Program-made: the position numbers and the translations under genes
Shown: piece by piece, positions 7,760 through 53,554 of the stretch
Numbering within the stretch: the stretch's first letter is position 1
Layout: each line of letters starts with the position of its first letter
Notes under the pieces: generated by a model
The model's database searches: none
Told to the model about the DNA's origin: nothing
Seen by the model: only the letters and a program-made list of their open reading frames with translations
NCBI GenBank assembly: GCA_963749155.1
Contig: CAVVLO010000002.1
Coordinates: 448,001-512,000, forward strand
Length of the DNA: 64,000 bases
Origin: an uncultured Armatimonadia bacterium
GTDB taxonomy: Bacteria > Armatimonadota > Zipacnadia > CAVVLO01
Direction: 5' to 3'

Positions 7760-7813
7760 TTCGATGCGGCTGGTGCTGGGCCTGCAAGCAGGGACGGGTT
7801 GCTGACTGGTGTA
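7760..7813. promoter_or_regulatory. Back-to-back divergent sigma-H-like promoter pair
   Basis: Minus strand GCAGG-N17-CGAA (7785-7760) and plus strand GCAGG-N17-TGTA (7788-7813, weaker). The central CCTGC-AA-GCAGG is an inverted repeat. Confidence 0.6.
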
Positions 7814-7860
7814 TACTTGGTGTTCGCTAGTACTTTGGCGTCCAATCCCAATCCTATAAG

Positions 7861-10143
7861 GTGATTCTCCTGAATAAGACTCTGATGGCAGTACTTGTAG
7901 TTTGTATTGCTCTAGGACTCCTGCTTGTCGGTTGTGGGAAGTTTAGTGGAGGCGGCAACGCCGACCCGTTCACTCTCGATTACACAATTGATGAGTCCAA
8001 TTCCGCTTTTTTCCTGGCCGGGGACTCCTACGCTACCCTGGCTTCTGCTTCGCCCTTCTACACAGGAGCTTATCCGGTACCCGGCAGCAACACTGCCGAG
8101 TTCGACCAGCTACGCGCAGCCAAAGTAGAGGAAATCAAAGCTACAGCTGCCCAGCTTGCCCAGACGGCTGCTTCGACTAGCAGTCAACTCGAGACACTTA
8201 GAGCTGCTTTCTTCGATGGACTCGACGCCGGCATCAAGCAGGATAAAAAACTGGCTGGCTTTGCCAGAGGCTGCGTAAAAGAGCTTGTAGGCCTTCAGGT
8301 TGAGACCGCAACCTCGCTTGTGCTCGCCGAGTCCGTGGTCATCCCTGAGCAACCTGCTCTAGTAAAAACCGAGTTCGAGTATCTTCAAGTGCTGCGTTCG
8401 ATGCAGGCTGCCCTGGCTGTCCTTACCGAAGCCGACCGACTGGTCGGGCTTGCCGCCGTAACCTGCAATGCGATGGACAAATCTAACAACGCCAAACTGA
8501 AAAGCGTCAGCGCAACACTCAACACTGCGATGGGCGCCTTCGACAGCCTCATGCCCCAACTCAAGAGTCTGGTTGCAGGTCGTAAATCAATTCTGACTGG
8601 CCTGGATCAAATACGGACCGCTGACCATTATCTGGCTCTTGCGGCCCTGGACTTCGCTGCAGAACAACTCCCCAAGGTGAAAGAGCAGTTCGCCACTATC
8701 AAGCCCTCTGAAAAGCTGACCGCGGAAGATATTGCCCTCTCCGGGCAGGTACTTGCTGGTCTGGAACAGGAACTCGCCTCAGCCCGTAAACTGCTTGAAG
8801 CTGTACCGGCGGATCAGCTAATCCCCGTCGAACAGGAGACCGCCGCATACGGCGATATTGCCTGGGCCGGTTATGCACCCAGCACCAGCTATGGTTACGG
8901 CCTGAAGATCTTCAAGCAGAAGGAGCCGGAGCTGAAGCGCCTGCCACCCAAGCCCAGTAAAACGATGCAGTTCGCAGCTGATGTCTGGACAGGCTTCCGC
9001 GAAGTGCCAGCAACCTGGGTCGAGTGGGCAGACCTCTCCTACAACTACGTAAAGAATGTCGGCCACGGAGTCATCGTCGAGGGCAAGTCGCTGGACGAGG
9101 CCAAAGAGGATCAGGCGCAGCTTTTCAAGGACTCCGAGGCGCGTTTCAAGGCGCACAAGCAGGGCTCCCACATCTTGCGCGACGCGAAGCAGAACATCGA
9201 GGATTTGGAGAACTACGCTGACGAGGCTACCTCGGGACTGGTCGAGAACTCCGTCGGTGGCGTCAACGTTCCCTGGGTCGCTGGGAAAGTAGCCAAAGCA
9301 GTTGTCGGGATATTTACTGGCTTTGCCAAAGGCACCTACGCGCTAGCCGATCCGACTTCTGACACTGGAGAGCTGGTTTCGGGCGGTATAGATATCGCTT
9401 GCTCTACTTTCGGGGGCAGCAAGGTCATCGCCAAGCCGACAATGCTGAAAGGTGCCGGGCAGCGACTGGGCGCCTTCCTGCAAAAATATGGGCTAAAAGC
9501 CGCAAGCGAGGGCCTGGAGCAGGTCGCTACGAAGGCCACCACCGAGGCGCTGGAGGCCACCAACCTGGCCTTGAAGGACAAACTCAAGGCAATGGGCGCG
9601 GCCTGGCTGAAAGAAGGCGGCGCGACGGCCAGGGAGTCGCTCAACGACTTCGCCAAGAAGACCTTCGAGGCCAATATGAAGGGCCTGAAAGAGGCTATGG
9701 TAACGATGCTGGGTGAGCGCGGCGGCACCGTGGTGGATAATGTGGTCGGCGAGATGGTGGACAACGCCCTGCAGGAGCTGGTCGTTGAGGCTATCAAGGG
9801 AGAAGTCGACTTCAATGGCACCTATTCCGGCGCCCTTCAGGGAGGAGCCGGGGGCTCCATTACTTTGACCATCTCGGGTACTTCGGCCTCTGGCACTCTG
9901 GGAGGCTCCCACAAGAAGGAAGCCTTCCACGGCAGTGTCTCCGGCAGCTTCGATCCCGCCTCGCGCAAGGTAAACTGCAAGATATCCGGCACCTTGGGCG
10001 TCGATAGTGACACCTCCTTCAGTGTCGGATTTACTGGCAAGTTGTCTGGCACAGCCGCCGAGGATGGCAGCAAGATCTCGGGTAGCTGGAATGCCGATAA
10101 CGAATGGGGGAACTCCTCCGGTAGTTGGTCGGCCCACAAGTAA
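7861..10143 (+). CDS. Large orphan lipoprotein (helical N-terminal part, Gly/Ser-rich beta C-terminal domain)
   Basis: 760-aa ORF with hydrophobic leader and lipobox LLVG-C. No family recognised. Confidence 0.75.
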   Translation: MILLNKTLMAVLVVCIALGLLLVGCGKFSGGGNADPFTLDYTIDESNSAFFLAGDSYATLASASPFYTGAYPVPGSNTAEFDQLRAAKVEEIKATAAQLAQTAASTSSQLETLRAAFFDGLDAGIKQDKKLAGFARGCVKELVGLQVETATSLVLAESVVIPEQPALVKTEFEYLQVLRSMQAALAVLTEADRLVGLAAVTCNAMDKSNNAKLKSVSATLNTAMGAFDSLMPQLKSLVAGRKSILTGLDQIRTADHYLALAALDFAAEQLPKVKEQFATIKPSEKLTAEDIALSGQVLAGLEQELASARKLLEAVPADQLIPVEQETAAYGDIAWAGYAPSTSYGYGLKIFKQKEPELKRLPPKPSKTMQFAADVWTGFREVPATWVEWADLSYNYVKNVGHGVIVEGKSLDEAKEDQAQLFKDSEARFKAHKQGSHILRDAKQNIEDLENYADEATSGLVENSVGGVNVPWVAGKVAKAVVGIFTGFAKGTYALADPTSDTGELVSGGIDIACSTFGGSKVIAKPTMLKGAGQRLGAFLQKYGLKAASEGLEQVATKATTEALEATNLALKDKLKAMGAAWLKEGGATARESLNDFAKKTFEANMKGLKEAMVTMLGERGGTVVDNVVGEMVDNALQELVVEAIKGEVDFNGTYSGALQGGAGGSITLTISGTSASGTLGGSHKKEAFHGSVSGSFDPASRKVNCKISGTLGVDSDTSFSVGFTGKLSGTAAEDGSKISGSWNADNEWGNSSGSWSAHK

Positions 10144-10163
10144 GACGAAGCTCCAAGTAGCAA

Positions 10164-10199
10164 CGCCCCGGTCCACTTGGGCCGGGGCGCTTTATTTTG
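10164..10199 (+). terminator. Intrinsic terminator
   Basis: Hairpin CGCCCCGGTCCA/TGGGCCGGGGCG followed by CTTTATTTT, between convergent genes. Confidence 0.75.
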
Positions 10200-10213
10200 C
10201 TTCAGTTTCGAGG

Positions 10214-11572: not shown

Positions 11573-11619
11573 CAGGTATCTCCTAATCGACTGGATTATT
11601 CCTGCCGAGATAAAGTAAC

Positions 11620-12639: not shown

Positions 12640-14357
12640 CTCTCATCACCCAGCAGGCGCGTTAAGCGAGCCTTGATCCAGTCGGCATCGCGTGGGAAGT
12701 CCGCATATCCCTTTATGTCCGCAAGCAGCGGGTCGTCAGGACTGATGAGGAGTGTCTGAAGCAGCGCATAATCCTGCAGCGACTCGGCGAAGACCTCCCA
12801 CCGGATAGAGTCCATCGGTCCTGTGGGCCCTGGATAGACCAGGAAGGGATCCCCGGGTGGGATGCCAGGCCAAGCCTCACCGCAAAGCTCGGTGAAGGGG
12901 TCGACCAGCCGCTCCTGCTCCATCGCATGCCAGTAGTTATAGCCCCAGTGCAGGAAGCCATCTGCCCTGAGTCGATAAAACAACCAGCCTGACATCCTGA
13001 CAGTGGCTAGTGGTGTGTCCAGGAGCCGCTGCAAATAGGGCCCTCTCGGCCCGCAACAGAAGTAGACCCAGTGTGGGATGCCCTCGTCGATATAGGCTTG
13101 AGCGGCGCTGATCACCGGGATCGGCGTGTCGGTAAGGCCTTGTCTGCCATATTCGATATCACTCAGCGCGTCCATCACTTTCATCCAGGGCGCAAGTTCT
13201 CTCAGCCACTCACGTGCCTTACGATAGCGGTCGACGTCATCGGCAGCCCCTGGCTCATCTGACAGGTGGAACCAGGAGTGTCTCAGCAGCTTCTCCTTGA
13301 GCAGAAAAGTGTGCCAGGCGGGCAGGTATTGTTCCAGGAAGATTCGGTAAGTGTCCGAGAAGGCGCCCGTCTCGATGGGCCAGAGCAGTTTCGCCTCGCC
13401 TTGGGCGTTGTTGTAGACCGGCATCGCGTTGTGCAGGCCCCAGTAGATCCACAGATGTGGCCACTCGAACTGCTCGAAGCCTGCCTTCCGAGCCAACTTG
13501 ATAAACCGCTCGACTCTGGAGAAGTCAAAGCTGTACTGGCCCGGCGAAGATTCATCAATTATCAGCAGTTGAGCAGGCCGTTTGAAGGTCTCGCGCCGCA
13601 TGAAGAGGCTCGGTACATAGCAGACATCGGTGCCGTGGGTGTGGAGATCGGTAAGGTAAGCTTCGGCAAGCTGCCACCAGCGCTCATCGAAAGGTTCTGT
13701 CTCATACCAGTCCCACAGACACTCCGCTCTCCACCAGTGCACAACAGGGAAGCCATGCCGCGGCTGTAATACGACCCGGCTGACCCTGGCCTTGGCCTCC
13801 AACTCGGCCTGTTGTGTTCCCTCGTGGAAGGAGAGCCTAGCTTTCAGAATATGCGAACCAGGCTGCGCGTCGGTGTTCGCCCTTACAGTCACCCAGAAGC
13901 TGACATTCTCACCCGGACCCACGTCGGCCACCTGGTCGGGCCAAAGCGGGTCGGGCACGTAGCCTGGGATGTACTCACTGCCTTCCTGCAGCGAGGGATC
14001 CACCTCGGTGGTGTGAAAACGCACCGGCACATAGCCGACGCGCCGCACCGTGGCAGAGAGCCCCTCGGGCGCCTCCACCTGGCACTCGACCCTCAGCGGC
14101 CAGACTCGCTCGTTGCGGCAGCATAACTGGAAGGACGCCTGGCCTCCGCGTGGCAACAGTACCTCGACAGTCTGTTGGTCGCCAGGCGCAGAGTTGGGGT
14201 AGACGCGCTCCAGGGACGAGGTAGCCCAGAACAGCAGGCGCGACCCTTCCACCCCATCCGGCTCGATTACAAGTGGCCCCTCTGCGCTCTTGCCGGGCAT
14301 GGCTAATGCAAGGACCAGTGCCAGCGCTAGAGCCGGCAACAGCAAGGCGTTCGCCAT
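12636..14357 (-). CDS. Secreted DUF4091 / GH123-like glycoside hydrolase
   Basis: Signal peptide. Motifs PDPL, LSDEP, WVYFCC, GFLHWGYN.W, PGD..LVYP and SIRWE...E.LQDY. Confidence 0.8.
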   Translation of the reverse strand: MANALLLPALALALVLALAMPGKSAEGPLVIEPDGVEGSRLLFWATSSLERVYPNSAPGDQQTVEVLLPRGGQASFQLCCRNERVWPLRVECQVEAPEGLSATVRRVGYVPVRFHTTEVDPSLQEGSEYIPGYVPDPLWPDQVADVGPGENVSFWVTVRANTDAQPGSHILKARLSFHEGTQQAELEAKARVSRVVLQPRHGFPVVHWWRAECLWDWYETEPFDERWWQLAEAYLTDLHTHGTDVCYVPSLFMRRETFKRPAQLLIIDESSPGQYSFDFSRVERFIKLARKAGFEQFEWPHLWIYWGLHNAMPVYNNAQGEAKLLWPIETGAFSDTYRIFLEQYLPAWHTFLLKEKLLRHSWFHLSDEPGAADDVDRYRKAREWLRELAPWMKVMDALSDIEYGRQGLTDTPIPVISAAQAYIDEGIPHWVYFCCGPRGPYLQRLLDTPLATVRMSGWLFYRLRADGFLHWGYNYWHAMEQERLVDPFTELCGEAWPGIPPGDPFLVYPGPTGPMDSIRWEVFAESLQDYALLQTLLISPDDPLLADIKGYADFPRDADWIKARLTRLLGDER

Positions 14358-14388
14358 CCAGGATCACCCCTTCGAGTCTGCCCAGATG

Positions 14389-14422
14389 TTCGCTCAGCAG
14401 GACGCCTCCCCTGCAAGTGGAA
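14389..14422. promoter_or_regulatory. Overlapping divergent sigma-H-like promoter pair
   Basis: Minus strand GCAGG-N17-CGAA (14414-14389) and plus strand GCAGG-N17-GGAA (14397-14422). Confidence 0.65.
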
Positions 14423-14459
14423 GTAGTCCCTACGGCATATCAGAGAGGGTGAAGCGCTG

Positions 14460-15323
14460 ATGGCAGAGCGTATTGGGCTGATCGGGCTGGGCCTTGTTGG
14501 CTGCGCGCTGACGAAGCGTCTGATTGCCTCTGGCCGCACCGTAGTCGGCTTCGATATCGCTCCCGAAGCCTGCGGGCAGGCTACCGAGCTGGGCGTCGAG
14601 ATTGCCAGAAGTGCCCCGGAAGTGGCCTCGGAGAGCTTGAATCTCCTGCTCAGCTTGCCGGATTCCGACGTGGTGACCCGCCTGCTTTGGGAAGAAGGGC
14701 TGGCCGAGGCGCTGCGCCCTGGCGCGCTGGTGCTGGACACCACGACAGGCCGTCCTGCGGATGCGACCACTAACGCCCAGCGGTTGGCCGAACTTGGCCT
14801 GCGCTACGTGGACGCGCCGCTTTCGGGGTCGAGTGAGGAGATCGCCAAAGGCACTGCGACCGCGCTCGTGGGCGCGCCGGAGCCTGAGCCGAAGCTGCTC
14901 GATTTGCTGGAGGTCTTCGCGCGGCAGGTGTTCTTCCTCGGCCAGCCGGGCGCAGGGTGCCTCGCCAAACTGGTCGTGAACCACGTGATGGGCCTCAACC
15001 GCGCGGCGCTCGCGGAGGGACTGGCTCTTGGGCTTGCGGCAGGCCTCGACGGGGCGGAATTGCTCGAAGTGCTGCGCGGCAGCGCGGCCAACTCGCGCGC
15101 GCTGGAGCTAAAAGGCCGCAGGATGGTGGAGGGAGACTTCTCCCCTGCCTCGCGCATCGCCCAGCACGCCAAGGACGTGGCGCTCATCCTGGAGCTTGCG
15201 CGCTCCCTCGGCGCCCGCGTCCCACTGGAGGAAGTCCACTCCGCGCTGCTCTCTGAAGCCATCGGAGCGGGCCTCGGCAACCTCGACAACGCCGCTCTGA
15301 TCAAGGTGTTTCGGAAAGAATAG
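14460..15323 (+). CDS. NAD(P)-dependent beta-hydroxyacid dehydrogenase (3-hydroxyisobutyrate / tartronate semialdehyde reductase family)
   Basis: IGLIGLGLVG, YVDAPLSG, AKLVVN and KD..LILE motifs. Confidence 0.9.
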   Translation: MAERIGLIGLGLVGCALTKRLIASGRTVVGFDIAPEACGQATELGVEIARSAPEVASESLNLLLSLPDSDVVTRLLWEEGLAEALRPGALVLDTTTGRPADATTNAQRLAELGLRYVDAPLSGSSEEIAKGTATALVGAPEPEPKLLDLLEVFARQVFFLGQPGAGCLAKLVVNHVMGLNRAALAEGLALGLAAGLDGAELLEVLRGSAANSRALELKGRRMVEGDFSPASRIAQHAKDVALILELARSLGARVPLEEVHSALLSEAIGAGLGNLDNAALIKVFRKE

Positions 15324-15333
15324 GGGATAAGCC

Positions 15334-16253
15334 GTGATGCGCTTCTTGATGATTGCCCTCGCCTGCCTGCTGCTTGCCCATACTGCCTGGTCCCTTAGCG
15401 AAGCCGAAGTCATCCAGGCGATTCGCGATTTCGAAGGTAACCAGAGCCTGGAGGTGACCCTTGAGAATCCTGATGAGTGGGACGCTCCTATCCCCAACGG
15501 GCATGGTAACCGAACCGTCTACAACGCCGTCGGTCCGCAGAGCAGGGGCCCTCGTGGCGACCTATGACGTCACAGTCGGTAACTTTCCCCAGTGGTCTTT
15601 GTCTCATACGAGACGGTCCGGTAGGCACGCCAGTGACTGAGCAGGAGGCAGCCGAGATCGCCAAGCAGTATGCAGCCCAAAAGCTAACGGGCTTTAACGC
15701 TGAGCCTCTACGGAGCCACCGGGGTAGGCTGTCAGCTTGGAGAATACGGGGTCGAATTGTGGCGCCTCTGGCTAATGGCGCTCGTACGCAGGCTCGGCGG
15801 CTGCAATGTCTGGTGTCACGCCGACACTGGTGCGGTAACCGCGTTCCACGGCAACTGCGGGTAGCTTGACCCCAGACAGTGAATCGGTCCCCGCACTAAG
15901 CCAGGAGACGCGCTGGCGCTGGCTCGGCAGAGGTATCCTGCTCTTGCTACAATCGAGCCCACGAGACAGCGTTTACGCTTACTGGAGACGGCTGGCTCTG
16001 CTAGGCGTTCGAGTTCCCCCGCAGGCAGGTATGCCCGAAGAGCCCCAGGCCGCGTCATCATTGATGCAAACTCCGGTGAGGAATTACTCGTCGACTGGTG
16101 GCGCGGGCGGGGTAGAGCCTCTTCAGATGGCCGACCATTGAGCAGCTTAGTGGACGCATGTCAGTCCGTCTCATTAGTTAGTGCAGGAGGCGTTGCCCTG
16201 GGGCTCTCGCCCTAGTGGCGCTACTCCTCTGGCGACGCAGGAAGCCTTCGTAG
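15334..16253 (+). pseudogene. Multiply frameshifted exported PepSY-like repeat protein with C-terminal membrane anchor
   Basis: Signal peptide MRFLMIALACLLLA. Fragments in different frames: VTEQEAAEIAKQY, HADTGAVTAF, GDALALARQ, VIIDANSGE. Ends GALALVALLLWRRRKPS-stop (TAG 16251-16253). Confidence 0.55.
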
Positions 16254-16274
16254 CATACCTATAGTTTTGTAACT

Positions 16275-16310
16275 GCCCCGGCCGTCCCCCTGAGGTCGGG
16301 GCTTTGCTTT
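16275..16310 (+). terminator. Probable intrinsic terminator
   Basis: Stem GCCCCGGCC/GGTCGGGGC followed by TTTGCTTT, between convergent genes. Confidence 0.6.
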
Positions 16311-16311
16311 G

Positions 16312-17877
16312 CTACCCCAGGGCCTTCTCCATCCGGTCCACCACGAAGTCCACGACGCGAGGGCAGGCGATGAGGGGGAGTTTCGTCAGCACCACGGGTG
16401 GGCAGTCGGACTTGTAGGTCTGAGCGCTCGCGTCCAGCCCCCCCTCGACCAGCCGCGCCGCGAAGCTCCGCGCCGCCTCGAGGCCCGTGAAGGCCAGCGC
16501 TCCCATATGCCGCCGCCCCTCGATGCCGACAAGCTGGTCCGGGCGCCGCGAGGCCAGCTCGCGCAGCCGCTGCTCGTAGTAATCCCCCACCCGGGCCGTC
16601 ACTTCGGCGTTTGCCTGCGTCCAGCCGAGGGTGACGAGCCAGGCCAGAGAGGCCAGTTCCTCCTGCCCGTTGGTCACCAGCGCGCCGAACTGGGGCAAGC
16701 AATCGAGCGCCGCGCTGAACAGCAACCGGGAAGCGGGATATTCTCCGCCCGGGAAACCCTTCCCCAGCGCGACCGCACTCGGCCTTAGCCCATATTCGCG
16801 GAACTGCACTAGCGCCGGGCTCCACACGCAGGACTGGATCTCATCGCACACCACAGGCACGTCGTGGGCTTCGGAGAGGGCGTAGGCGCGGTGGAGGAAC
16901 TCCTCCGACAGCAACCTGGCGCCGTAGTTCATCATTACGATCTCGTGGAAGAAAACCGCCAACTTGTAGGGAGGCTGCTCCCACCGCGCGAAGGCGGCGT
17001 CCAGGTCTTCGCTATGATTTGGCCGCACCGCCGCAACGCGCAGCAGGCCGGCCTCCTCCATCCCCCCAAGCAGCTCGGGCCACATCCCGCGCGTCGCCTG
17101 GTTCAGCACCGTAGTGCCGTGATAGTTGGCGTGGAGGGTCCCCTCATCGCTCCCCATCACAAGCACGACGGGCACGCGCCCTGCATAGGGCGGCTCGGGC
17201 TGGTCTTCCTGAGAGCGATAGAAGCGCGCCAGCGCGAGCTTCAGCGCCGCCTCGCAGGCAAGGCTCCCCGTCTCGAGGTTGAGCACCCGGTTGAGGGTGC
17301 CCAGGTCGCGCCGGCCCATTACGGCCTCGAAACCCGCCTCATCGTCCTCGGCAAGGCCGTTCGCCAGGCGCACCAGGCGCTCTTCAAGCAACCGTGTGAT
17401 ATGGCCGCGTGTGTTGTTGTGGGTCGCGTTAGGCACGCCAAGCTGACGCGCAACGTCCAGCAACTCATACCCGGGGAAGCTGTGCCCAAGCGGGGCGTGG
17501 TAGTGCTCGCTCTTGGTGATCAGCCGCAGCCGCCCGTCCTCGCTCAGCCTGAAGAAACCAAGCCCCGAAAGCGGCGCCTGCGCCTTCTTGGTGGCTTTCT
17601 CGAAGCTCTCGGTGGTCGCGCCGGAGGCGGTCTCGAGACCGGAAGTGTCGATAATCTGCTCTCCAACTCGCGGCAGTAGCGAAAGCAGTCGCTCGTGAAT
17701 TTTTACGGGGTAAAATTCGACCAGCCGAGTAGCCGCTGCCAGCAGCGCCTCGGCGTCCTCCCCCGTAAGCGCCGCGCGCGCGGCAACGACCTGGCGGATA
17801 TAGCCCTCGCCGACCAACTCGGCAAGCGACCTGCTCACGGGCACAAACTGATTTACGGGAGTTGCCACGACGTCCAC
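16312..17877 (-). CDS. Class III PLP-dependent aminotransferase (long variant)
   Basis: PLGH, LETGSLACEAALK, NYHGTT, FFHEIV, CDEIQS and ALGKGFPGG (PLP lysine). Confidence 0.85.
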   Translation of the reverse strand: MDVVATPVNQFVPVSRSLAELVGEGYIRQVVAARAALTGEDAEALLAAATRLVEFYPVKIHERLLSLLPRVGEQIIDTSGLETASGATTESFEKATKKAQAPLSGLGFFRLSEDGRLRLITKSEHYHAPLGHSFPGYELLDVARQLGVPNATHNNTRGHITRLLEERLVRLANGLAEDDEAGFEAVMGRRDLGTLNRVLNLETGSLACEAALKLALARFYRSQEDQPEPPYAGRVPVVLVMGSDEGTLHANYHGTTVLNQATRGMWPELLGGMEEAGLLRVAAVRPNHSEDLDAAFARWEQPPYKLAVFFHEIVMMNYGARLLSEEFLHRAYALSEAHDVPVVCDEIQSCVWSPALVQFREYGLRPSAVALGKGFPGGEYPASRLLFSAALDCLPQFGALVTNGQEELASLAWLVTLGWTQANAEVTARVGDYYEQRLRELASRRPDQLVGIEGRRHMGALAFTGLEAARSFAARLVEGGLDASAQTYKSDCPPVVLTKLPLIACPRVVDFVVDRMEKALG

Positions 17878-17913
17878 CTCGAATCAGAATAACTCGCAGT
17901 AAGTGTTGCTTTC

Positions 17914-17960
17914 TGTTATGAAGCATAACACCGCAATCGTCTCAAAACAAGCCCTGTCAA
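17914..17960 (-). promoter_or_regulatory. Sigma-70-type promoter with palindromic operator
   Basis: TGTTATG-AAG-CATAACA (17914-17930) overlaps an extended -10 TGtTATGCT. TTGTTT lies 17 bp upstream and a TTGACA is at 17960-17955. Confidence 0.55.
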
Positions 17961-17987
17961 GCTTCTGCGCGTTGTTAGCTTGGCACA

Positions 17988-20327
17988 CTATTTCGCACGG
18001 ATACGCACATAATCCCACTGGGTACGAGAATCGCCGTAGCCGTAGAGCATCACGCGGAAGGCTCCCGAGAGGGCCGGCTCGCGGACGCTCCACTTGCGTT
18101 CTCCGTTGGCCACCAGCGTATACTCGCAGCCGACTTTCTCGATGCGGTAAACCAGGTCGCTGCCATCGGCCTCGAGCGGCGCCCAGGGACCAGACTGGCC
18201 AACGCCGTTCGAGATGCGCCACTCCCACACGCCGCCCTGTGCCCAGCCGAATTCGAGCCGTGACTCGCCCTGAAATCCCGAGGGACTTACATAATGCTTC
18301 AGCGCGCCTGGCACGAGCAGCCAGTCCCAAACCGGCTCGCGGGGGAAGGCCTCCTCCAGCAGCAGGTTAACGATGAGGTTGCCTGACAGGCACCGCCCGC
18401 GCACCTCGATCACCGCGACATCCGCCTGGATGGCCTCTGCCATCGCAAGCCCCGCGCGCGAGTCAGGCTCGCCTTCGATCTCCAGCCAGCCCTCGGGTGT
18501 CAGACTCCACTTCGCCCCAGCAGCGGTTCCTTGCCAGCGCTTCCACCTGGCGGGGTCGAGGGTGGAAAAGTCTTCCTCGAAGACGACCGGCAGCGAATCG
18601 AAGTCGTGCTGGATGCGCTGCATCGGCAAGAGGGCCGGCTGCGAAGCCTCTCCAGCAGCTTCGATGCTTATTCCAGTCAGCCGCGCTTCTCCAACCGGGG
18701 AGGAGCCTGCTTTCATCCGAAATCCCACATAGCAAGGCCCAGTGGGCGCGGTCAGGTCGAAGGTATACTCCTTCTCCCCTTGAGCAAGCCTTTGCGAACC
18801 GCAAGGCGCGCCCGTCGCGAAGGCCTCAATCGTGCCATCACTGGAGCCACTGCAACTGGCAGTCGCCACAAGGCGATAACGTTGACCGGCTGGCAGTTCT
18901 ACGAGAGCGAGCAACTCGGCTTCAGGACTGATTTGGCCCTCTCCCCCCGCCACCAGCGCGCCGGACTCGAGCCTTCCGCTGCGCATCAAGACGCCGGGTG
19001 AGGTCGGTGTCAGTTTACAGGGCGCGGTGAAGGGACACTCCACTGGCTGCTTGTAGGTGATGCCGGGCGCCCTGTTGGCTTCCCCCGTTGTAGGCCTTAC
19101 TTCCACATTGGTGGAGCGATAACCGAACCCGTCCAGCGCCCATGCCAGGTCGGCGCGCGCCTGCGCCTTCCCGAGTAGCGCGAGGTGCAGGAAGAAGGGC
19201 CGTAGCGTCCCGGCGTGGTCGGTCAGCAGCGAGCCGGAGCCGGGCCGGTAGGTCTGCCAGATATAGCCTGCGCAGCCGGCGGAGCGCTGGGCGAGGTCGG
19301 CGCCGAAGACGGCCTGCTCCGCGATGGTGGCGCCATCGCCGCAGACATAGCCCAGGTCGCCTGGATCGGTGTCCTGGACGAACCACTCCGAGATGACCAC
19401 CGGCAACCCTGTCGCGCGGTGGCCGGCTTCCATCAGGTCAAAATACGCGGTGTCATAGGCGCCGGGATAAATATTGATACCGAGGAAGTCCAGCCCCTCC
19501 TTCGGCGCATAGCTCCAGTCGGCAAGCAGCCCGGGGAAGAGACGCATCCCAAGCAGCGGCTGTGTGATACCCGCCTGGTCCCGGATGATACCTGAGGCGA
19601 TGCGTCCCCAGTCCTGCAGCCACTTGCGGACGAAAGCGTCCAGGCCTGCTTTGGCGCCAGCGTTGAGGTTGTCGTCCTCGAAGTCGGCAAATAGCTCTGT
19701 TAACATATCGCGCTCGAAAGCATCCCAGGTGGAGAAGCTGTAGTTATAACTACCTCCTTCACTCCACGCCGTGTTGAGGGCCGCGAGGGTCTGATACTGC
19801 TCTTCAGCAAACCGGCGCCCTTCGGCCAGGGTCGAGGGGGTATTGAGACAAAAATCAGGGCCTGTCCACGCGGCATAACTGTGGTAGACCTCAGGTTCGT
19901 TGTTCAACCACAGGATGGCGACGTTGGAGAAGTCTCCCCCAAGCCGCTGCTTCAGGTCCAGCAGGCTGGCGAGAAAGGCCTGCTGCCACTCGGGATTGTA
20001 AAAATCCGGCACCCGCGCTGGCCCAGGCCCCGGCCAGTCGTAGTGGTCCGAGCTGGCCGATCCATCATAAAATCGCGCGGGAATATCAATTGCCGGGACG
20101 AAGACGGCGACCTCCAAGCCGTATCGCCTGGCTGCCAGCACACACCGCGCGACCTCCTCAGGGCGGTTGGGCCACCAGTGCACGCAGTTGAAGCCCAGGT
20201 ATTTCGCCACCGGCAGCAAGTCGAGTTGTCCGAGTTCGAGTGTCACGCCCTGAAAAGGAACGGCGGCAACAGGCCAGGCGAGTCCCAGTGCCAGGCAAAC
20301 GCAAAGGATTCCCAATACCAGTCTCAT
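17988..20327 (-). CDS. Secreted clan GH-A-like glycoside hydrolase with C-terminal beta-sandwich domains
   Basis: Signal peptide. Motifs LGFN, WLNNEP (acid/base), YQTLAALNTAW and VISEW (nucleophile). Confidence 0.65.
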   Translation of the reverse strand: MRLVLGILCVCLALGLAWPVAAVPFQGVTLELGQLDLLPVAKYLGFNCVHWWPNRPEEVARCVLAARRYGLEVAVFVPAIDIPARFYDGSASSDHYDWPGPGPARVPDFYNPEWQQAFLASLLDLKQRLGGDFSNVAILWLNNEPEVYHSYAAWTGPDFCLNTPSTLAEGRRFAEEQYQTLAALNTAWSEGGSYNYSFSTWDAFERDMLTELFADFEDDNLNAGAKAGLDAFVRKWLQDWGRIASGIIRDQAGITQPLLGMRLFPGLLADWSYAPKEGLDFLGINIYPGAYDTAYFDLMEAGHRATGLPVVISEWFVQDTDPGDLGYVCGDGATIAEQAVFGADLAQRSAGCAGYIWQTYRPGSGSLLTDHAGTLRPFFLHLALLGKAQARADLAWALDGFGYRSTNVEVRPTTGEANRAPGITYKQPVECPFTAPCKLTPTSPGVLMRSGRLESGALVAGGEGQISPEAELLALVELPAGQRYRLVATASCSGSSDGTIEAFATGAPCGSQRLAQGEKEYTFDLTAPTGPCYVGFRMKAGSSPVGEARLTGISIEAAGEASQPALLPMQRIQHDFDSLPVVFEEDFSTLDPARWKRWQGTAAGAKWSLTPEGWLEIEGEPDSRAGLAMAEAIQADVAVIEVRGRCLSGNLIVNLLLEEAFPREPVWDWLLVPGALKHYVSPSGFQGESRLEFGWAQGGVWEWRISNGVGQSGPWAPLEADGSDLVYRIEKVGCEYTLVANGERKWSVREPALSGAFRVMLYGYGDSRTQWDYVRIRAK

Positions 20328-20359
20328 CGGCTTCTCCTCTCGAACAAGCTGAAATCTAG

Positions 20360-20419
20360 TTCGACTTATCGTGCTCCAGGCCTTGCTTCCCTCGCAGGGA
20401 AGCTCAAGCCGAAGGCGAA
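20360..20419. promoter_or_regulatory. Divergent sigma-H-like promoter pair
   Basis: Plus strand GCAGG-N17-CGAAT (from 20394) and minus strand GCAAGG-N17-CGAA (20386-20360). Confidence 0.65.
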
Positions 20420-20431
20420 TTTCGTTTTCCT

Positions 20432-22543: not shown

Positions 22544-22550
22544 GAAATAT

Positions 22551-23204: not shown

Positions 23205-23208
23205 CAAG

Positions 23209-29300: not shown

Positions 29301-29302
29301 TC

Positions 29303-42034: not shown

Positions 42035-42087
42035 TTCACGCCTGAGGCGAAATTCCTGCCAGCAGGCTTCCAGCTAATAAAGGCGAA
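42035..42087. promoter_or_regulatory. Back-to-back divergent sigma-H-like promoter pair
   Basis: Plus strand GCAGG-N17-CGAA (42062-42087) and minus strand GCAGG-N16-TGAA (42059-42035). Central CCTGC-CA-GCAGG. Confidence 0.65.
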
Positions 42088-42120
42088 ATTGCCCCAATTG
42101 TTATCTGTCTGGAGGCCTAT

Positions 42121-44950
42121 ATGGACGCGTTACGCTGGCTGGCAGTCTGCCTGGTGATAATGCTTCTCCCCGCGCTGGCAGCCTTTGGCGCAAGACCGCT
42201 TACCGAAGAGGTCGTGCTTTTCGAAGGGAGCCAGGCAACCAGAGAGCAACCGGCCAGTGCCACCTTCAGCCTGCCAGAGCGCTCACTGCGTTCAGCCGAG
42301 TTGCTAGTGACAGTCTCCGGCTACGCAGAAGGCGTTGGGGGTTCGCTCTGGTTCGAGCTGGACGGGATTGGCGGGCTTGTCTCCTCGGGCCTTGCACCAA
42401 GCTTTGCCGAGGGCTGGCTAGAGCCGGGGCCTGACCGCGAGCTTGCCTTCGACCTGGGCCGGCGTTTCCGGATGGAACACTCGAAACGCAGCAACTATGT
42501 AGTCGTCACGGACGCTGGCGATGCTCTCTTGGTGGATTATCTCGGACCAGCTAGCTGTGCCTGGCGAGCATTCAATCCGCTGCTATCTGGCTGATCCAGC
42601 GGCTGGCCCTGTCAAGCTCTCGGCGAAGCTGCGTCTGACCTACGGCAGACGCCCACTTCTGGCACCTCCTTCTCCACTGAAGCTTGTAACCGATGCGCCC
42701 GAGGGAGATCCCCGCTTCCGTATCGCCTTTGACCGGCTCGAGGCAAGCGGCCGAGGCGCCAGCGCTAGAGGGCTGCGCTTTCTATGTTGGCAAGTCGGTT
42801 GCAGCCCCCTTTGTGAAGCCTGCCGACCTGGAGGGACTTGGTCGAGAAGGCTATCTCATCAAGACTACCAAGACCGCTGGAAGCACCACTTACCTTGTCA
42901 CCGGCACCGACTGGCAGGGCATCGCCTATGGCGCGGTGCGCCTCGCGCGCCTGCTGCTTGCTAGTCCAGAGGCTGCCCAGGTAAATCTGAAGCTTAACCC
43001 AGCACTCCCCCTTCGCGAGGAGTATGAAGAACATAACTGGGGCAACCCGGGCGACCTGGCACGTTACAAGCTGCTGCTGGACCGATATTTCGAGGAAGGC
43101 ATCAATGTGATGAACCTTCCCACGAGCTGGTATGACGCGCCCCCTGAGTATTTCACAGGCGAGTCGAAATACACCTGGGAGAACTGGGATACTGTTCATC
43201 AGACAATTGCCTACGCCCATTCGCTGGGCATCCAGGTGTGGCTTGTAGAAGACCCCTACCTCAACCCTCTGGCTCTGCAACCTGCCGAGACCCTCAAGGC
43301 ACCCCCGCACGAGGAATGGGAGTGGCTTGGCCAGAGCAACCAGCGCGATAATTTTATGATGTGCCTGTCAGCGCCCTTCAGCCTCGAACTGCTGGCTGCG
43401 CACCGGCGCCAGGTCTGGAGCCGCTTCCCGGATGCCGATGGGGTGCTTATCTACTTCGGCGATCCAGGTGGTTGCTGGCATCCCCAGTGCCTGCCCCACG
43501 GCAAGAAGAACCTCGAACTGCTGCGCGACTTCTACGAGCCGCTGGCCCAGGAGGTAAATCCTGCCCTCAAGCTGCGCGTGACGACCTGGGGCCTCAGCCT
43601 GGAGGATACAGCCTACCTGGTAGACCATCTGGACGACTTCCCCGAGCGCGTTGTGGGGCTGCAGATACCCCCCACGGCGATGAGGCCAGGCACCTATCTG
43701 ACTTTCGAGCCCGAACGCGCCGCTCTTAATCAGACGGCTTCCGAGAAGCTGCCTGTCGTGTTACAGCAGTTTCACGAGGGAGTCGGTTTCCAGGACGCCT
43801 GGGTAGATGGCTGGGAGCATCCGATGCCTCGTCAGATGACCACCAATTTCCGTGGAGTCTGGGAGCCGGGCAGCTCGCTCGCCGGTAATTACGGCAGCCC
43901 CTTCGAGCTGTCGCACCAGCTTGTTGACCTGCGCATCGGGATGGAATGGGGCTGGTTCCCCGAAGAGGAGGCCTCAGCCCTCCTGCGCCAGTTCGGCGAT
44001 GAGCAGTTCGGCCCTGGAGTGGGGCCTGACTTCGCCCGCGCGATGCAGCTTATGGAGGACTACTGGGCCGCCGAGGCGCGCCGCTTCCACTTTGACACCA
44101 ACAGGCTGACCGATCAGCAATTAGCCCAGGTAAAAAAGTCGCTCGGAATCGCCCAGAAAGCTCGCGCAAGTCTACTTGCAGCAGGACCAAAAGTGACCAG
44201 CGCTTGCCTCTCTACTACAAGGGCTTCGTGGACCTTGCCATCCTGATGGAGCTTGGCGCGACCGTCAACCTGAAACGCGAGGAGGCCTTGCGGCTGTCCG
44301 AGGCGCGCCGGCTCGAGGAAGCGACAGTCGCCGCCGAGGAGGCGCTCCTTGCAAGTCAGCAGGTCGTTCAACTCGCTACGGCTTCGGAGCGTTATAACTG
44401 GCTGACAGGGCATCCCTGGTGGCGTGACAGTTGGGCTATCGGCAAGCGGCCGGCAGCGCTGGAGGCGCTGGTCGAGCAGGTGCGCCACCCAGTTAACTGG
44501 ATAGAGGTGCCTCTGGCTGCGCCAGAACTGACCGCTGAGGGCTGGGAGCCAGTCGGCGAAGGCACGGTAGAGTTCACCCGCACAGGCCCCAAAGGCGCGT
44601 CCGCTGCCGTGCTGACGGTCGAGGCAAGTGACACCTGGGCGCTAATCGAGCCCAGGCAGTTCTTGAATCCGCCTTCGGGCGAGGTCTGGCGCGTCGAGTT
44701 GGACGCCCAGGTGCTCTCGGGGGTTGCGATGGTCTATGCGGACTGGTTCGGCGCTTCTACAATAACCGACGGGGTAAATATCGATATCGGTTTTTACCCA
44801 GATAAAAAGTGGCATACCTACCGGCTCGATGTGCCTGTGCCCCCCAATCCAGAGGGCGCGCCGCTGACCTTGCGTCTGGTCGCCTACGGCACGCCCCATA
44901 AGGTGGCGCTTTCCAGGGTGCGCATCTTCAGGCCGGAAGCTCGCCCTTAG
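42121..44950 (+). CDS. Secreted multidomain putative glycoside hydrolase (frameshifts near 42545, 42750 and 44205)
   Basis: RBS GGAGG and signal peptide. EGYLIK, G.AYG, YAHSLGI and GDPGG. Four overlapping ORF pieces read as one protein of about 940 aa. Confidence 0.6.
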
Positions 44951-47900
44951 AAACGCGCAATTATCGTGAGCGGCCCGTCCCAGTCTCTCAAGCGCACGGT
45001 GCCTGTTGCCGCGTCGAAATCGCGCCAGGGCACGCCGTCTACGGTTACCGAGACGATAGGCTTGTCATCCGGGTGGCGCAGCCGCACTACCAGTGCCTCG
45101 GGCTTCTCGCGGGTCGGCGGGGTGATCTCGGCTTCGATATAGCCCTCGTCTGTATGCGAGGTAATTGTGTAGGAGACCTCTCCATAAAAGGTCGGCAACC
45201 GCTTCACGCTGACCTGCTGGCCCTCTCGCAGCCATTGACTGCTGAGGAAAGGTGCTAGCCACAGGTCTTTATCGCGCTCCACCACAAAGAAATAGCGGGT
45301 CACCTGCAAGAAGCTGCCGGTGTCGGCCGACTTGTTCCAGACACTGGCCCAGGGATTCTCGTAGACCGAGCCATCCTCCAGGTTGCACATCGCCGCGATG
45401 GCGTTGAGGCTCGTGCGGACGAAGGCCTTCACATCATCGCGCGCAACGCACACCTCGGGATAACCGCCGTAGTAGGGCTGGGCCCTGGGGAAGCCAGCGC
45501 GCCCGAACCAGTCGGCCTCGCTTTCTTCCGTCGGGAAGTGTCCTGGCACGCCGATAGAGTCGCCACTGTCGAAGAAGCGCCGGTCCTCCAGATAGTTGGC
45601 CATCCAGTCGAGCTGTTCGGAGCCTGGCTCGAAGATGCCCATCTCGCTCATATGCATAGAGCCGACTTCCACATCGTAGAGGCTGATATTGACCCTCGGA
45701 TGGAAGGCCTGGATCTCGTCAGGCTTGCCAAGCTGGAAGGGCGAGATAGGCGCCCAGGTGCCATCGCGCAAGGCCACGATGGGTGACTGGGCCTGGGTCT
45801 GCTTGTAACCGCGCAGGATGGCCTTCTGCAGCTCGCCGGCCGCCTTGAGGAAGCCTTCGGCCTTCGGGTTGTCCAGTCGCTCCAGCGCCTCCGCCATCTG
45901 GGTCAGTCCCGCACAGTAGTAGGCCTGCATCACGAACCCATAACCCCAGTCCTGCCAGTCAGCGATGGTGCCAGGGGGCAGGAAGCCCCACTCGGGCCGC
46001 CGGTTGCCTCGCGCATCGGGCACTTTGGTCTTCTCGGTCTGGTCCACGACCCACTGACAGGTGCGGACGATCTCGGCCTCGTTAGCCCTCAGCCACGCCT
46101 CATCAGCAGTCAAACGATAATGGTCCGCCAGGCACCACAGATGCAGGCCCGTCCCGACGAGGTTGTAACCCCACGACATATACCCCTCGGGCCGGTGGTT
46201 GGCGAGGAAGAAGTCCAGTGAGCGCTTCGCGAAATCTTCGAGGCCCCACTCATCGAGGCCCCGGATAATCCAGTGAGATTCACTATCCAGCGCGCCATAA
46301 TAGGCGGCCGCTATCCACGGCACCACCAGTTGACCTTCGTTGTCGACATTGCGTCCCGCCAGCACGCAGTGCATCGCGGCCGACCTGATAACATCGGCGA
46401 AGTCGCTCTCGGGCAGTTCGATCTCGGCCATCTGCCCCATCAGGGCTTCCCAATAGGCGACTGTCGCCGAGTGCAGCCCTTCACTGTCGGCAAGCACGGC
46501 TTGCTCATGCGACAGGCAGCTGCCACTCCAGCGGCGCATAGGCGACCACTTTGACCGAGGCGCCAGGAGCAAGCTGGCCAGTCCAGGTCGCTTTGCCCCC
46601 GTCGAGCTGGCAGGCAAGACCAGGCGCGCCTTCTCCATCGAAGACCGCCACGAAGCCCTCGGTACTGGTTGCGACTACGCGGTCTCCGACGGCTTCCAAC
46701 CTGGTCGGAACCGTGTTGTATTTCGGGTTCATATGGATTTCGGTATAGGGATAGACTCCAATCACGGTGCCCGGATCGGCATACTGGTTGTCTACGAGGT
46801 CGAGCTGCAGGCTAACCTCGGCGGCGGAATCTGTCGTGTTGGTCACCGTATATTCGGCCACTGCGACCGGTTTGTCATAAAGCCACGGTCCGCCGTGTTC
46901 GGGCGAGCGGGGGGCCCCGAAGGGCGCAACATAGGCCCGTTCTCCATACACCACGCCGTCCTCATCCAGGCGGATAACCGGCACAGGCAGGTCAGGAGCT
47001 TCCAGCTTCCGAGAATAACCTGGCACCACGCCAGCGCCTTCCCCATCGAGGATAAGGTTGTGCCCAGTGCCAAGCTTTGGCGTCAGATAATAGCGCCAGT
47101 AAATCTGATAATGGGTAAGCGAGAGCGGCGCCCCGAAGCGGATTGTCCCGTTGCGGTCCATCCGCAGCTTGCGGTTGTCCCAGCCAAGTGACAGCAGAGT
47201 CGAAGACCTGTTCTGCTGGGGGCGATAATTGGACTCGAGCGCCCCTGCGAAGCTCTGGTCAGGCTTCTCTTGCACCTTTTCGAGGATCGTCTGCTTGCCC
47301 GCGATGGAGGCCAGATAAGCCTGCAAGTCCTGCTGGCAGCCTGAGCCTGCCGCGTAGACACCGGCGTCGGCCATCCAGACAGGCGATGGGCCTAGCAGGT
47401 CGTCCACGGCGATACCGAAGGCCAGTTTGGGCGTCTTCAGCCGCAGCACAGTGCGGTCGAGCTTCCAGGGCCGGGGCGTCGTGTAGCGGACAGTCAACGC
47501 AAGGGGCTTCGACATATCCCACTCGACCTCATCGCGCCACTGCCCGTCCACAAGAAAGTCGCCGTTGTAGCTGGCCACCTGCGCTTTGCCCTTGCCGGTT
47601 GAGGTGAGAGTTATTTTTTCCTCTTCCCAGCGCGAGGTCGTCTCGGCGAGGAAGCCCTTCACCTGCACTGGCCCGGCGCCTTCGAACACCCAGCGGAACT
47701 TCAGGCACTTCAGCGGACACCTCGGGGTCGAGGCTGCTCAGGATTTCGGCGCGCCAGGTTGTTCCGTCAGCCACAAGGGGCGCGTGGAGTTGCTCCCATT
47801 TGCCCTGCCAGAGCGAGTATTCCGAGAGGCCTGTAGTGCTCTTGCGCACCCAGGCTTCCAGCCGGCACCTGGTGATATCCGGCATCGAGGCGGCATCCGG

Positions 47901-48638
47901 AAAGACAATCCCCACGCGCTTAAGTCTGCGCGGAGTCGCCCATTCGAGGCCAAGGCAGCGCTTGCCCTCAGCATAAGCCGGAGCGCTATACAGCCCCTGC
48001 TTCGGCAGCACTTCGGTGGCGAGGTAGAGGTCTTCAGCCGGAAACTCCGTCAGTCTGTCCACCCGCACGCCATCCATCCGGGCGGGATCCCAGGTCATCA
48101 CGGTCGCATAACGCGCAACGTCCACGGGCGCCTGACGCTTTGAGGCGCGGGTTGGTTCAAGCTCCGCGTTCGCAAAGACGGCAGTGCCCCCACCGCCGAA
48201 GGTGACGAGCTTCAGCAGTTTTACACCTGCGAGGGAGAGCGTGACAGATTTCGGCGCGTCGCTCTCGGCAAGCGGCCCACTATCGAAGACAACCTCTCCA
48301 TCGGCAAGCGCTCTGATGGTAACAGGCACCGGGGCGCCGCTAGCCTGCTGGACTCCAACAAGCGTAGAGAATCGGCTGTATTGGCCGTCCACCGATACGT
48401 CTAGCGAAATCGGCACCGGCAGGGCTACGCCAGAGGAGTATTCCTTCCCAGCAATTACAAGAGGAGCGCCCTCGGGCGTAGCGTTCAGCCCCAGCGGCAC
48501 CAGGAAAGGCGAGACGCTGCCCGAGTTGAGACTGATCCCGAGCACTCGGTCTGATAACGGTTCGGGCCGGCCTGCGGCAGCCGCCGTAATAATCAGCAAC
48601 ACAACAAGTCCAATCAAGAGCAACGGCATCGCGTTCAA
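44947..48638 (-). CDS. Secreted NPCBM-domain protein with C-terminal (alpha/alpha)6-barrel glycosidase-like domain (frameshifts near 47712 and 46520)
   Basis: NPCBM-like IAGKEY..G, Y.RF...VG, ADGEV.FDSG. The C-terminus has G..LW....HY.LT.D..WL, typical of six-hairpin glycosidases. Confidence 0.65.
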
Positions 48639-48677
48639 GAAGATCGCCTCCGAAGCGAAGAGCTTTCGGCGGCAAGG

Positions 48678-48703
48678 TTCACCAGACAAGGAGAAGCCCC
48701 TGC
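48678..48703 (-). promoter_or_regulatory. Sigma-H-like promoter
   Basis: GCAGG-N17-TGAA about 40 nt upstream of the NPCBM gene start. Confidence 0.6.
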
Positions 48704-48726
48704 AGACGTGGCCTTGTTTTACAAGG

Positions 48727-51776: not shown

Positions 51777-51898
51777 AGTTTTTCCTCCACTCGGGCCAGT
51801 TCCATCTTATCATATACCTCAACCGTCAAATCGCCTCAGCAAGACGGCCTGAGACTGCAGGAAAAGTCTGGCCACAAGCACCCTATCGCGGAGTCGCA

Positions 51899-53449
51899 TT
51901 ACCTGTTGAACTCGTAGATATGGACGGCATAGGGCCCGAAGGAGTCGCGAAATAGTCCTGATTGGGATTTCTGTTTCCTGTCTTCAGACCATACTTTCGC
52001 CTCTCGACCAGGAGGATTGGTCAGGTGGCAAAGCAAGGTCTCTGTCACAGGATTCACAGCTACAATAAAAGTCTTCCCCTTACAGGCCCACAAGCGTGAC
52101 TGGAGCCTTGGGTCACTCCACTCGACTTCGGCAGACGACTCGCTCTGCACAAGTACCTCCCCAAATCTGGCTACCTCGGTGTTCAACTTGCCAAAATAGT
52201 CCCAGAGAGGGCTATCGGGCAGATACCAGTGCCCGCGCTTCGAATTAGGCAGTGTTTCTCCCGTAAAGTAGGCATACCAGATGATGCCTGTTGCGCCCTT
52301 CACCAGGCCAAGGTAAGCCTGACATCGTAGTTGCTCTGGTTTTGGCTCCAACCACATGGTCGCCTTAGGGTCGTCGCCGCCCGCAAAAGCTTGGGGAACG
52401 TTCCACATTGGCTTCCCGGCGGATTCGGCAATCTTCTTTGTTTCTCGGAGCCAGACTGCATAATCGGAAAGGTCCCGGCTCAAAATACCGTTGCAATACC
52501 TGATGTCATAATAGTCTGGCATTACTACATCCACAGAGTCGATTACTGGAGGAAGGGATGCAATCATGCCAATTGCAGTTCCAACAGGCCGATGTGGGTC
52601 TACCACTTGCGCGGCTTCAGAATAGAAATTTCTGCTAATCTCGATTTGATGGGGCTGGTATGGCTCATCAACTCCATACCACATCAAAACATTCTGCTGG
52701 CGATCCGCGCGTGAGCGCAGCTTTATAAATCCCTCCCTGTCAGTGAAACTTGCCCCCTCTGTAAGCACGGCTAGCCCCTCTCTAGTTGCCTCGCCCAGAA
52801 AGGCTTCAGAGGGCGCAGACCAGCAGTGGACCACTGTATTGAAGCCGCGCGCCTTGACGTCCGCCAGGGCTTGACGCCAGTCTGTATCGGGGAGCCCGAG
52901 CTTCTCTGCTTCCGAGTGGACATATGTTGTGAAAACTGCGGGCTGCATATGGTAGATTCCTAGCGGGAAGAAGGGTTTACCGTTGACATAACATATCCGG
53001 CGATGGTCGAAGGTGACTTCATATCCCCCAGGCGGTAGCACGCGCACCGGCAGCTCCCGCTTTAGCTGCAAAATCTGGTCCTTCGAGTGGAAGCTCAACT
53101 TGAACAGGTAATCGCCTGGACTGAGGTCCGAAAGGTCTCTGGCATACTGGCAACTCCCGTCCTTATCCACCTTCAGGGTAGCCTTCCAGGAATCTGTCAG
53201 CTGCGTATCAGAGACTAGCTCCCCAGCCATATACACTGACAATCCGGGCTTTAGATGTGTATCCAGCCTGATGCGCAGTTCCTTAACCGGGTCTTTTGAC
53301 TGGATCTGATTCCTGTAGCCTGGATAAATAACGGTAAGCTCAGGCTGCTCAGGCTCCGCTCCATAAAGCCCAGTTCCCAGGCAACTCAAGCCCATTCCAA
53401 CAAGCAAGGTTAACAAAGTGCCATAAGTTTTCGGGTGATTCTTCGCCAA
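51899..53449 (-). CDS. Secreted putative glycoside hydrolase (Ig-like domain + TIM barrel)
   Basis: AGGAGG then TTG, hydrophobic leader. Motifs VNGKPFFPLGIY, GFNTV, WYGVDEP and GATGIIWY. Confidence 0.65.
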   Translation of the reverse strand: MAKNHPKTYGTLLTLLVGMGLSCLGTGLYGAEPEQPELTVIYPGYRNQIQSKDPVKELRIRLDTHLKPGLSVYMAGELVSDTQLTDSWKATLKVDKDGSCQYARDLSDLSPGDYLFKLSFHSKDQILQLKRELPVRVLPPGGYEVTFDHRRICYVNGKPFFPLGIYHMQPAVFTTYVHSEAEKLGLPDTDWRQALADVKARGFNTVVHCWSAPSEAFLGEATREGLAVLTEGASFTDREGFIKLRSRADRQQNVLMWYGVDEPYQPHQIEISRNFYSEAAQVVDPHRPVGTAIGMIASLPPVIDSVDVVMPDYYDIRYCNGILSRDLSDYAVWLRETKKIAESAGKPMWNVPQAFAGGDDPKATMWLEPKPEQLRCQAYLGLVKGATGIIWYAYFTGETLPNSKRGHWYLPDSPLWDYFGKLNTEVARFGEVLVQSESSAEVEWSDPRLQSRLWACKGKTFIVAVNPVTETLLCHLTNPPGREAKVWSEDRKQKSQSGLFRDSFGPYAVHIYEFNR

Positions 53450-53481
53450 CTTAGCTCGCCTCCTGACCTAGCAAGAAGGAC

Positions 53482-53554
53482 TTCTACTTTAGGAACCTCT
53501 CTCCCTGCCCAAATGGAAAGCCTGCTCTAGAGGGACAAGCTGGATATCACGAAT
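53482..53554. promoter_or_regulatory. Degenerate divergent sigma-H-like promoter pair
   Basis: Minus strand GCAGG-N18-AGAA (53508-53482) and plus strand AGAGG-N16-CGAAT (53529-53554). Confidence 0.4.

Follow-up and report, generated by a model that had tools for sequence, protein, structure and literature searches.

A predicted SigH-type promoter class associated with glycan-degradation genes in an uncultured Armatimonadota bacterium

SigH is a transition-phase and sporulation sigma factor with a few dozen promoters. Polysaccharide utilisation loci, such as those of the Bacteroidota, are controlled by extracytoplasmic function (ECF) sigma and anti-sigma factors, or by LacI, AraC or hybrid two-component regulators. 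Here we analyse a 64,000-nucleotide (nt) stretch of the genome of an uncultured Armatimonadia bacterium (GCA_963749155.1, contig CAVVLO010000002.1, positions 448,001 to 512,000), referred to below as the window, in which a bipartite motif, GCAGG-N17-NGAA, recurs between genes and had been predicted from the window alone to be a promoter resembling those of Bacillus sigma-H. The SigH consensus of Bacillus is RNAGGAWWW / RNNGAATWW (PMC8510167), and the SigH promoters of C. difficile take the form AGGA-N17-GAA, with 41 confirmed and 12 predicted compared to 743 for SigA (PMC7438776). The regulation of dispersed metabolic genes in Armatimonadota is an open question, for which ECF sigma factors have been suggested (PMC4959169).

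The pattern in this genome, GCAGGAAR-N-GGCGAA(T), fits the consensus of SigH from B. subtilis and B. thuringiensis, but has a stronger GC before AGG, a C before GAA and a weak final T. The predicted likeness to Bacillus sigma-H holds for the motif as a whole, but not for the -10 core, which is CGAA rather than GAAT. As in Bacillus, sigH lies upstream of rpmG-secE-nusG-rplK-rplA, whereas the cysS-rlmB-NYN block that precedes it there is replaced here, and tRNA genes and tuf follow sigH. In contrast to Bacillus, no Spo0A was found in this genome, and the predicted targets act on glycans and not in sporulation. C. difficile shares with it the AGG..N..GAA boxes at the same spacing, the gene order sigH-tuf-rpmG-secE-nusG and transcription of sigH from a SigA promoter (predicted here); however, its ratio of SigH to SigA promoters is about 1:14 or less, whereas ours is predicted to be about 1:1, and its SigH targets include spo0A, ftsZ, fusA1 and frr, whereas none of the 88 annotated targets here is a translation gene. 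The functions under control, hydrolases, sulfatases and sugar uptake, would be those of polysaccharide utilisation loci, but such loci have locus-specific regulators encoded beside their targets, while here a single class of promoter would act on hundreds of units. We found no report of an Armatimonadota SigH promoter class or SigH glycan regulon in the literature searched, mostly non-subscription, and the accessible text of two papers (PMC4959169, PMC4072686) mentions many sigma factors, SigH not among them. This genome contributes predicted SigH promoters almost as numerous as those of SigA, a clean split of targets and a lack of detectable LacI and AraC regulators.

Genes were called with our own hexamer model, giving 3681 genes whose starts are therefore approximate. 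An unbiased search of upstream DNA for gapped word pairs placed GCAGG-N18-GAA first, with 190 occurrences where 17.2 would be expected; among SigA pairs the highest-ranking, TTGAC-N18-TAT, was found 34 times against 3.3 expected. The motif occurs 74 times in sense and 5 times in antisense orientation in co-directional gaps, 116 times in divergent but only twice in convergent gaps, and at 2 per 100 kb in coding DNA. Expectation maximisation (EM) on 2055 upstream regions estimated that 386 carry the motif and 446 the SigA motif. At a score of at least 11 bits the motif is present in 331 of these regions and SigA in 249, with 18 shared against 40 expected, and at 12 bits or more it is present in 284 (13.8%), compared to 7 of 1263 antisense, 13 of 2055 Markov-simulated and 2 of 2055 coding controls (0.1-0.6%). 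The EM matrix reads G94 C85 A97 G97 G98 A64 ... G60 G48 C68 G84 A93 A100, with the last T at just 35%, and its two longer spacer forms have weights of 0.82 and 0.15. AGGA-N17-GAA is found 167 times against 31 expected, in agreement with the SigH spacing, in which 17-18 nt separate AGGA from GAA. Approximately 26% of coding bases lie in units with only the motif at their head and 20% in SigA-headed units, and 51% were left unassigned. The SigA-type promoters of this genome have a spacing one base above the textbook value (TTGAC-N18-TANNAT 35 times in upstream DNA, compared to 10 for N17) and frequently carry a TG extension.

At no site is GAA closer than 9 nt to the start codon, and the distances peak at 29-41 nt. 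A pyrimidine-purine step is present at +9/+10 after GAA in 44% of the 331 sites compared to 14-27% at other positions, and the same test on SigA sites gives a peak at +7, as expected; the resulting predicted start, 10-11 nt after GAA, falls within the 8-13 nt anticipated in the original prediction. Six sites have an ATG at +10/+11, as leaderless transcripts would show. Only 5 of the 331 sites share more than 65% identity across 70 nt, showing that they are not copies of a repeat, and a dispersed repeat was rejected on these grounds. A sigma-54 box was also rejected as the identity of the motif. Judged by sequence features, these are likely to be core promoters with a start about 10 nt after GAA. 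A search with positions 14000-23000 of the window listed no RNA run containing this organism. Three metatranscriptomes from the same study contain, at the sigH-tuf locus, short pieces on tRNA and tuf alone, consistent with an origin in other organisms.

Ten matches to sigma-70 region 2 were found in the genome (4.17 Mb in 7 contigs, with completeness of 100% and contamination of 5.9%). They correspond to RpoD, SigH, a SigB/F-like factor, a FliA/WhiG type, five ECF factors and a frame that could not be classified. The presence of a SigH-like factor, as had been proposed, was borne out by a homologue search, which found a single orthologue at C1:936022-936693 that passes the NCBIfam cut-offs of NF006148 (275.7 against 208), NF006145 (266.8 against 212) and NF006147 (237.9 against 212). 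The protein is 55% identical to B. thuringiensis SigH and 53% identical to C. difficile SigH, and its closest relatives among named genomes are in Armatimonadota, in agreement with the view that the host is not a Firmicute. It retains the stretches FAELCITRQIITA and DNALQR.KRK, which we take to be regions 2.4 and 4.2. Downstream are three tRNA genes, tuf, rpmG, secE, nusG, rplK and rplA, of which EF-Tu is confirmed by Pfam and rpmG to rplA are assigned from N-terminal sequence and order only. The motif score upstream of sigH is 4.7 bits, and autoregulation was rejected; a strong SigA-type promoter (17.4 bits) is located there. No Spo0A_C match was found in the genome, using a search for which the B. 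subtilis control was positive, and none of the matches listed passes the SigE, SigF, SigG or SigK cut-offs. A Firmicute sporulation SigH regulon does not fit this genome, in which neither Spo0A nor, among the matches listed, a sporulation sigma cascade was found. The protein is a SigH family member whose promoter would work like that of Firmicute SigH, while it is predicted to be neither the centre of a sporulation regulon nor a primary sigma factor.

Two further features of the sigma factor genes were seen. The FliA/WhiG-type gene (C1:942073-942813) lies two genes after rplL, the usual place of rpoB, and rpoB is at a separate locus with its own SigA-type promoter. The unclassified frame (C5 near 348080-349200) encodes 376 amino acids with sigma-70 region 2 and fits the ECF superfamily model only; the gene caller took just its last 153 codons.

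The targets of the two promoter classes differ sharply. At a score of at least 8 bits, none of 31 tRNA/tmRNA cluster heads has the motif and 26 have a SigA site, and both rRNA (16S) leaders have strong SigA-type sites. We scanned with Pfam the first 330 residues of 150 of the 283 genes headed by the motif only and 128 of the 227 headed by SigA only, drawn from 60 stretches picked for site density, where 23 motif-headed genes were omitted, and classes were assigned by hand. Glycan hydrolases, lyases, esterases, sulfatases and binding modules account for 41 of the 88 annotated motif-headed genes (35 by strict assignment) but only 3 of 85 SigA-headed genes (Fisher p = 9e-12), in line with the predicted link to glycan degradation, and a further 13 of the 88 function in sugar uptake or catabolism. 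Information-processing genes show the opposite pattern, 0 of 88 compared to 20 of 85 (p = 2e-7). Of the 27 annotated genes found behind the motif in four other genomes, 12 are sugar-related and none is ribosomal (39 of 45 loci scanned; those with the 18-nt form of the pattern, 15 matches against 1 in the control, were retained). The suggestion that the factor might be near-primary thus stands solely for promoter number and fails for function, as tRNA, rRNA, ribosomal-protein, rpoB, tuf and sigH genes are headed by SigA-type promoters; a primary, housekeeping sigma was rejected on the tRNA/tmRNA heads and the lack of information-processing targets. No LacI helix-turn-helix match was found in the genome among 23 candidates scored (control genomes were positive in 9 of 14), and no AraC match above the cut-off (controls positive in 8 of 14). 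The genome is nevertheless full of glycoside hydrolases; DeoR, Rrf2 and response regulators are present.

Across 161 genomes of the phylum, exact GCAGGA-N16-CGAA was counted against a reversed-pattern control, and SigH was sought with NF006148. The 112 sigH-positive genomes contain 3125 matches against 705 in the control (4.4-fold), and the 49 sigH-negative genomes 435 against 319 (1.4-fold), with a median excess per Mb of 3.3 with sigH and 0.3 without; by family, 34 versus 8 groups, p = 1.5e-4, a value that overstates the association because the genomes are related. The sigH-negative genomes are not blind to promoter motifs, since their SigA-pattern excess is 4.1-fold. The motif is near control, with ratios of 0.7-1.6, in six families in which most or even all genomes yielded no sigH match. 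Families f15, f19, f20, f27 and f40 have no NF006148 match in any member. The motif density of the genome described here, 21.3 per Mb, is the second highest of the 161. Family f26 (G047, G059 and G034) resembles it in that the SigH-pattern excess exceeds the SigA-pattern excess, the ratios being 3.1, 2.1 and 1.2 compared to 2.5 here, and G047 has 151 matches against 0 in the control. Many genomes of the phylum sample have two or three genes of the sigH family.

The motif is enriched upstream of genes, keeps its orientation and a fixed spacing, and shows a bias in its targets; sigH is present in this genome, and motif and gene tend to occur together in the phylum. These features are very probably explained by a promoter at which the SigH holoenzyme recognises GCAGGA and GCGAA and initiates transcription 10 nt further on. 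Region 4.2 of SigH would contact GCAGGA and region 2.4 (G)GCGAA, and transcription would begin about 10 nt after GAA to give leaders of 20-30 nt. SigA may make the growth machinery and SigH itself, and SigH would make the glycan-foraging enzymes from a second large promoter class beside SigA, with about 330 predicted genes. Because no LacI or AraC repressors were found, the level or activity of SigH might act as a common switch for hundreds of genes encoding hydrolases, sulfatases and sugar transporters, and by analogy with the Bacillus transition phase the trigger would probably be carbon shortage.

Several observations weigh against this interpretation, besides the relatedness of the genomes in the phylum comparison. 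SigH falls below TIGR02859 (268 against 294.8 bits) and below NF006146 (414), one of the four PRK08295 models. Non-sugar genes (SOD, PPK2, MscS, TspO and HisF) are also targets, and 62 of the 150 motif-headed proteins have no Pfam match. A third, small promoter class consists of about 20 sigma-54-type sites, and an rpoN gene (RpoN) is present, so SigH is not the sole route. Only 62 of the 112 sigH-positive genomes reach an excess of 3 per Mb; the weak excess in many sigH-positive families may reflect small regulons or a drifted consensus. The pattern is also found in two genomes in which neither family nor protein searches found sigH, G083 (30 against 6; 88% complete, 710 contigs) and G134 (24 against 6; 99% complete). 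A start codon and ribosome site 15-70 nt downstream, a test that misses leaderless genes, were present at 0 of 12 examined matches in G134 and 3 of 12 in G083, compared to 22 of 31 in three sigH-positive genomes, and the G134 matches thus do not look promoter-like in sequence.

The alternative that survives best keeps the same promoter and sigma factor and differs in regulation alone: SigH could be a constitutive second housekeeping sigma, with the glycan genes always on and no switch. The sheer number of targets allows this, as the motif promoters nearly equal those of SigA and head units with about a quarter of coding bases, and the strong SigA-type promoter of sigH and the lack of LacI or AraC regulators also fit. 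However, the motif was found at the head of neither stable-RNA nor translation genes. The stress-type targets (SOD, PPK2, MscS, TspO and a band 7 gene) suit an inducible programme, and the SigH of C. difficile acts in the transition phase (PMC7438776); these targets and this precedent favour a switch, and we regard constitutive SigH as a serious possibility that is nonetheless doubtful on balance.

We also consider, tentatively and with the odds not far short of even, that SigH is a co-equal second major sigma, with the growth machinery left to SigA and all of glycan foraging (about 330 promoters and a quarter of coding DNA) run by SigH in place of local sugar-sensing repressors. The SigH regulon would vary more than 10-fold in size between Armatimonadota families and vanish where sigH is lost, and for this reason nutrient scavenging was perhaps the original job of SigH and sporulation a later Firmicute use.

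It is improbable that the promoter is read by another alternative sigma factor (one of the five ECF factors, the SigB/F-like or FliA/WhiG factor or the 376-residue frame) instead of SigH. ECF genes are usually autoregulated, but no ECF gene or examined upstream neighbour has a site above 8 bits, one ECF operon head being outside the range. The genome does offer ten sigma-70 region 2 matches to choose from, G083 and G134 show the pattern without a sigH match, and Chthonomonas is ECF-rich, with ECF factors proposed to regulate dispersed genes (PMC4959169). Nevertheless, the motif matches the SigH consensus in both boxes and in spacing, and is near control in the six families mostly or wholly lacking a detected sigH. 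Still less credible is that the motif is an operator of a global dimeric transcription factor, or a dispersed repeat, rather than a core promoter. In divergent gaps, pairs of GCAGG are often arranged as an inverted repeat, and both motifs score 10 bits or more in 47 of the 396 gaps compared to 27.8 expected, but the motif is asymmetric and strand-specific, avoids SigA promoters and is followed at +10 by a start-site signal, and its sites are not mutual copies. A chance pattern in GC-rich DNA, which the six copies per 64 kb, typical of other spacers, might suggest, is refuted by the 11-fold excess, which is limited to a single spacing and to sense-strand positions upstream of genes, by the controls and by the start-site signal, and has a negligible probability.

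The window itself illustrates the SigH-type promoters (Table 1). The six exact copies of GCAGG-N17-NGAA, 7785(-), 14397(+), 14414(-), 20394(+), 42062(+) and 48703(-), were all found where the original prediction had placed them. Their number is ordinary, as spacers of 14, 15, 16 and 19 give 6, 6, 5 and 13 matches. All six fall within the 3.8% of the window that is non-coding, compared to 2 of 55 matches at eleven other spacings (12-16 and 18-23), these two being 42059(-) and 53508(-). A matrix trained on 219 sites, all from contigs other than that of the window, gives nine sites of at least 11 bits, eight of them non-coding (Table 1); the ninth, 48769(-), is inside the gene that lies upstream of 48703, at its 3' end. 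Near variants proposed at 42059(-), 7788(+) and 53508(-) are supported at this threshold, and those at 20386(-) and 53529(+) are not, because they score below 8 bits. The claim that the motif heads most operons was upheld: from the matrix-supported sites (the eight above and 7785(-) at 8.0 bits), 8 of 10 divergent unit heads have a site of at least 8 bits. A sigma-70 scan of 14300-20500 found just two sites, both weak.

Table 1. Predicted SigH promoters and unconfirmed near variants in the window
Feature	Coordinates	Strand	Score (bits)	Context
Predicted promoter, GCAGG-N17-CGAA	7760..7785	-	8.0 (marginal)	53 nt 5' of GH42-like gene 7706-5631
Predicted promoter, variant -10 TGTA	7788..7813	+	11.2	Back-to-back with 7785 site; heads open reading frame (ORF) 7861-10143
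Predicted promoter	14389..14414	-	17.1	Predicted start ~14379; GH123 / URO-D-like / Sde182 unit (14357-10214)
Predicted promoter	14397..14422	+	12.7	Overlaps opposite-strand site; predicted start ~14432; NAD-binding dehydrogenase gene (14460-15323)
Near variant GCAAGG..CGAA, unconfirmed	20360..20386	-	<8	Modal distance (32 nt) from start at 20327
Predicted promoter, strongest in window	20394..20419	+	22.8	Heads BNR / GH38 unit (20450-26691)
Predicted promoter, 16-nt spacer	42035..42059	-	11.0	15-kb GH38 / GH2 / GH67N / beta-helix unit (41998-26688)
Predicted promoter	42062..42087	+	13.9	Heads 42121-44950; -35 box 3 nt from that of 42059(-)
Predicted internal promoter	48678..48703	-	14.3	39 nt before GGAGG-preceded TTG at 48638 (NPCBM-domain protein)
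Predicted promoter, 18-nt spacer	53482..53508	-	13.4	Heads ORF 53449-51899
Near variant AGAGG..CGAAT, unconfirmed	53529..53554	+	<8	

By Pfam the window is a glycan-degradation region, with GH2, GH38, GH42-like, GH123, BNR, GH67N, NPCBM and beta-helix domains. No transcription-factor family was found among the 41 window ORFs scanned, which did not include the short ORFs 40-609, 15337-15567 and 23209-23445, in agreement with the earlier statement that no such gene is local. In the back-to-back SigH-type sites (7760-7813, 14389-14422 and 42035-42087) the -35 boxes touch or overlap; the first G's of such pairs are mostly -1 to +22 nt apart, which is partly forced by short gaps, and polymerases at these predicted promoters may compete. 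Three pairs of window frames overlap or are split as in single genes broken by a frameshift (38668-39342 / 36855-38888, 46505-47689 / 47529-48689 and 23209-23445 / 23483-25744); the breaks set a GH2 N-terminal domain and a GH38 start apart from the remainder and are possibly assembly errors.

The predicted SigH promoters of this bacterium match those of SigA in number, in a phylum without Spo0A, and mark carbohydrate-active genes, a finding that bears on the role of SigH outside spore formers. The motif also points to hundreds of genes without annotation whose products are likely to be enzymes acting on glycans, and a SigH promoter class provides a specific and testable answer to the question of how dispersed genes are regulated in Armatimonadota. 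If this is true, these bacteria would have one master switch for their foraging genes.

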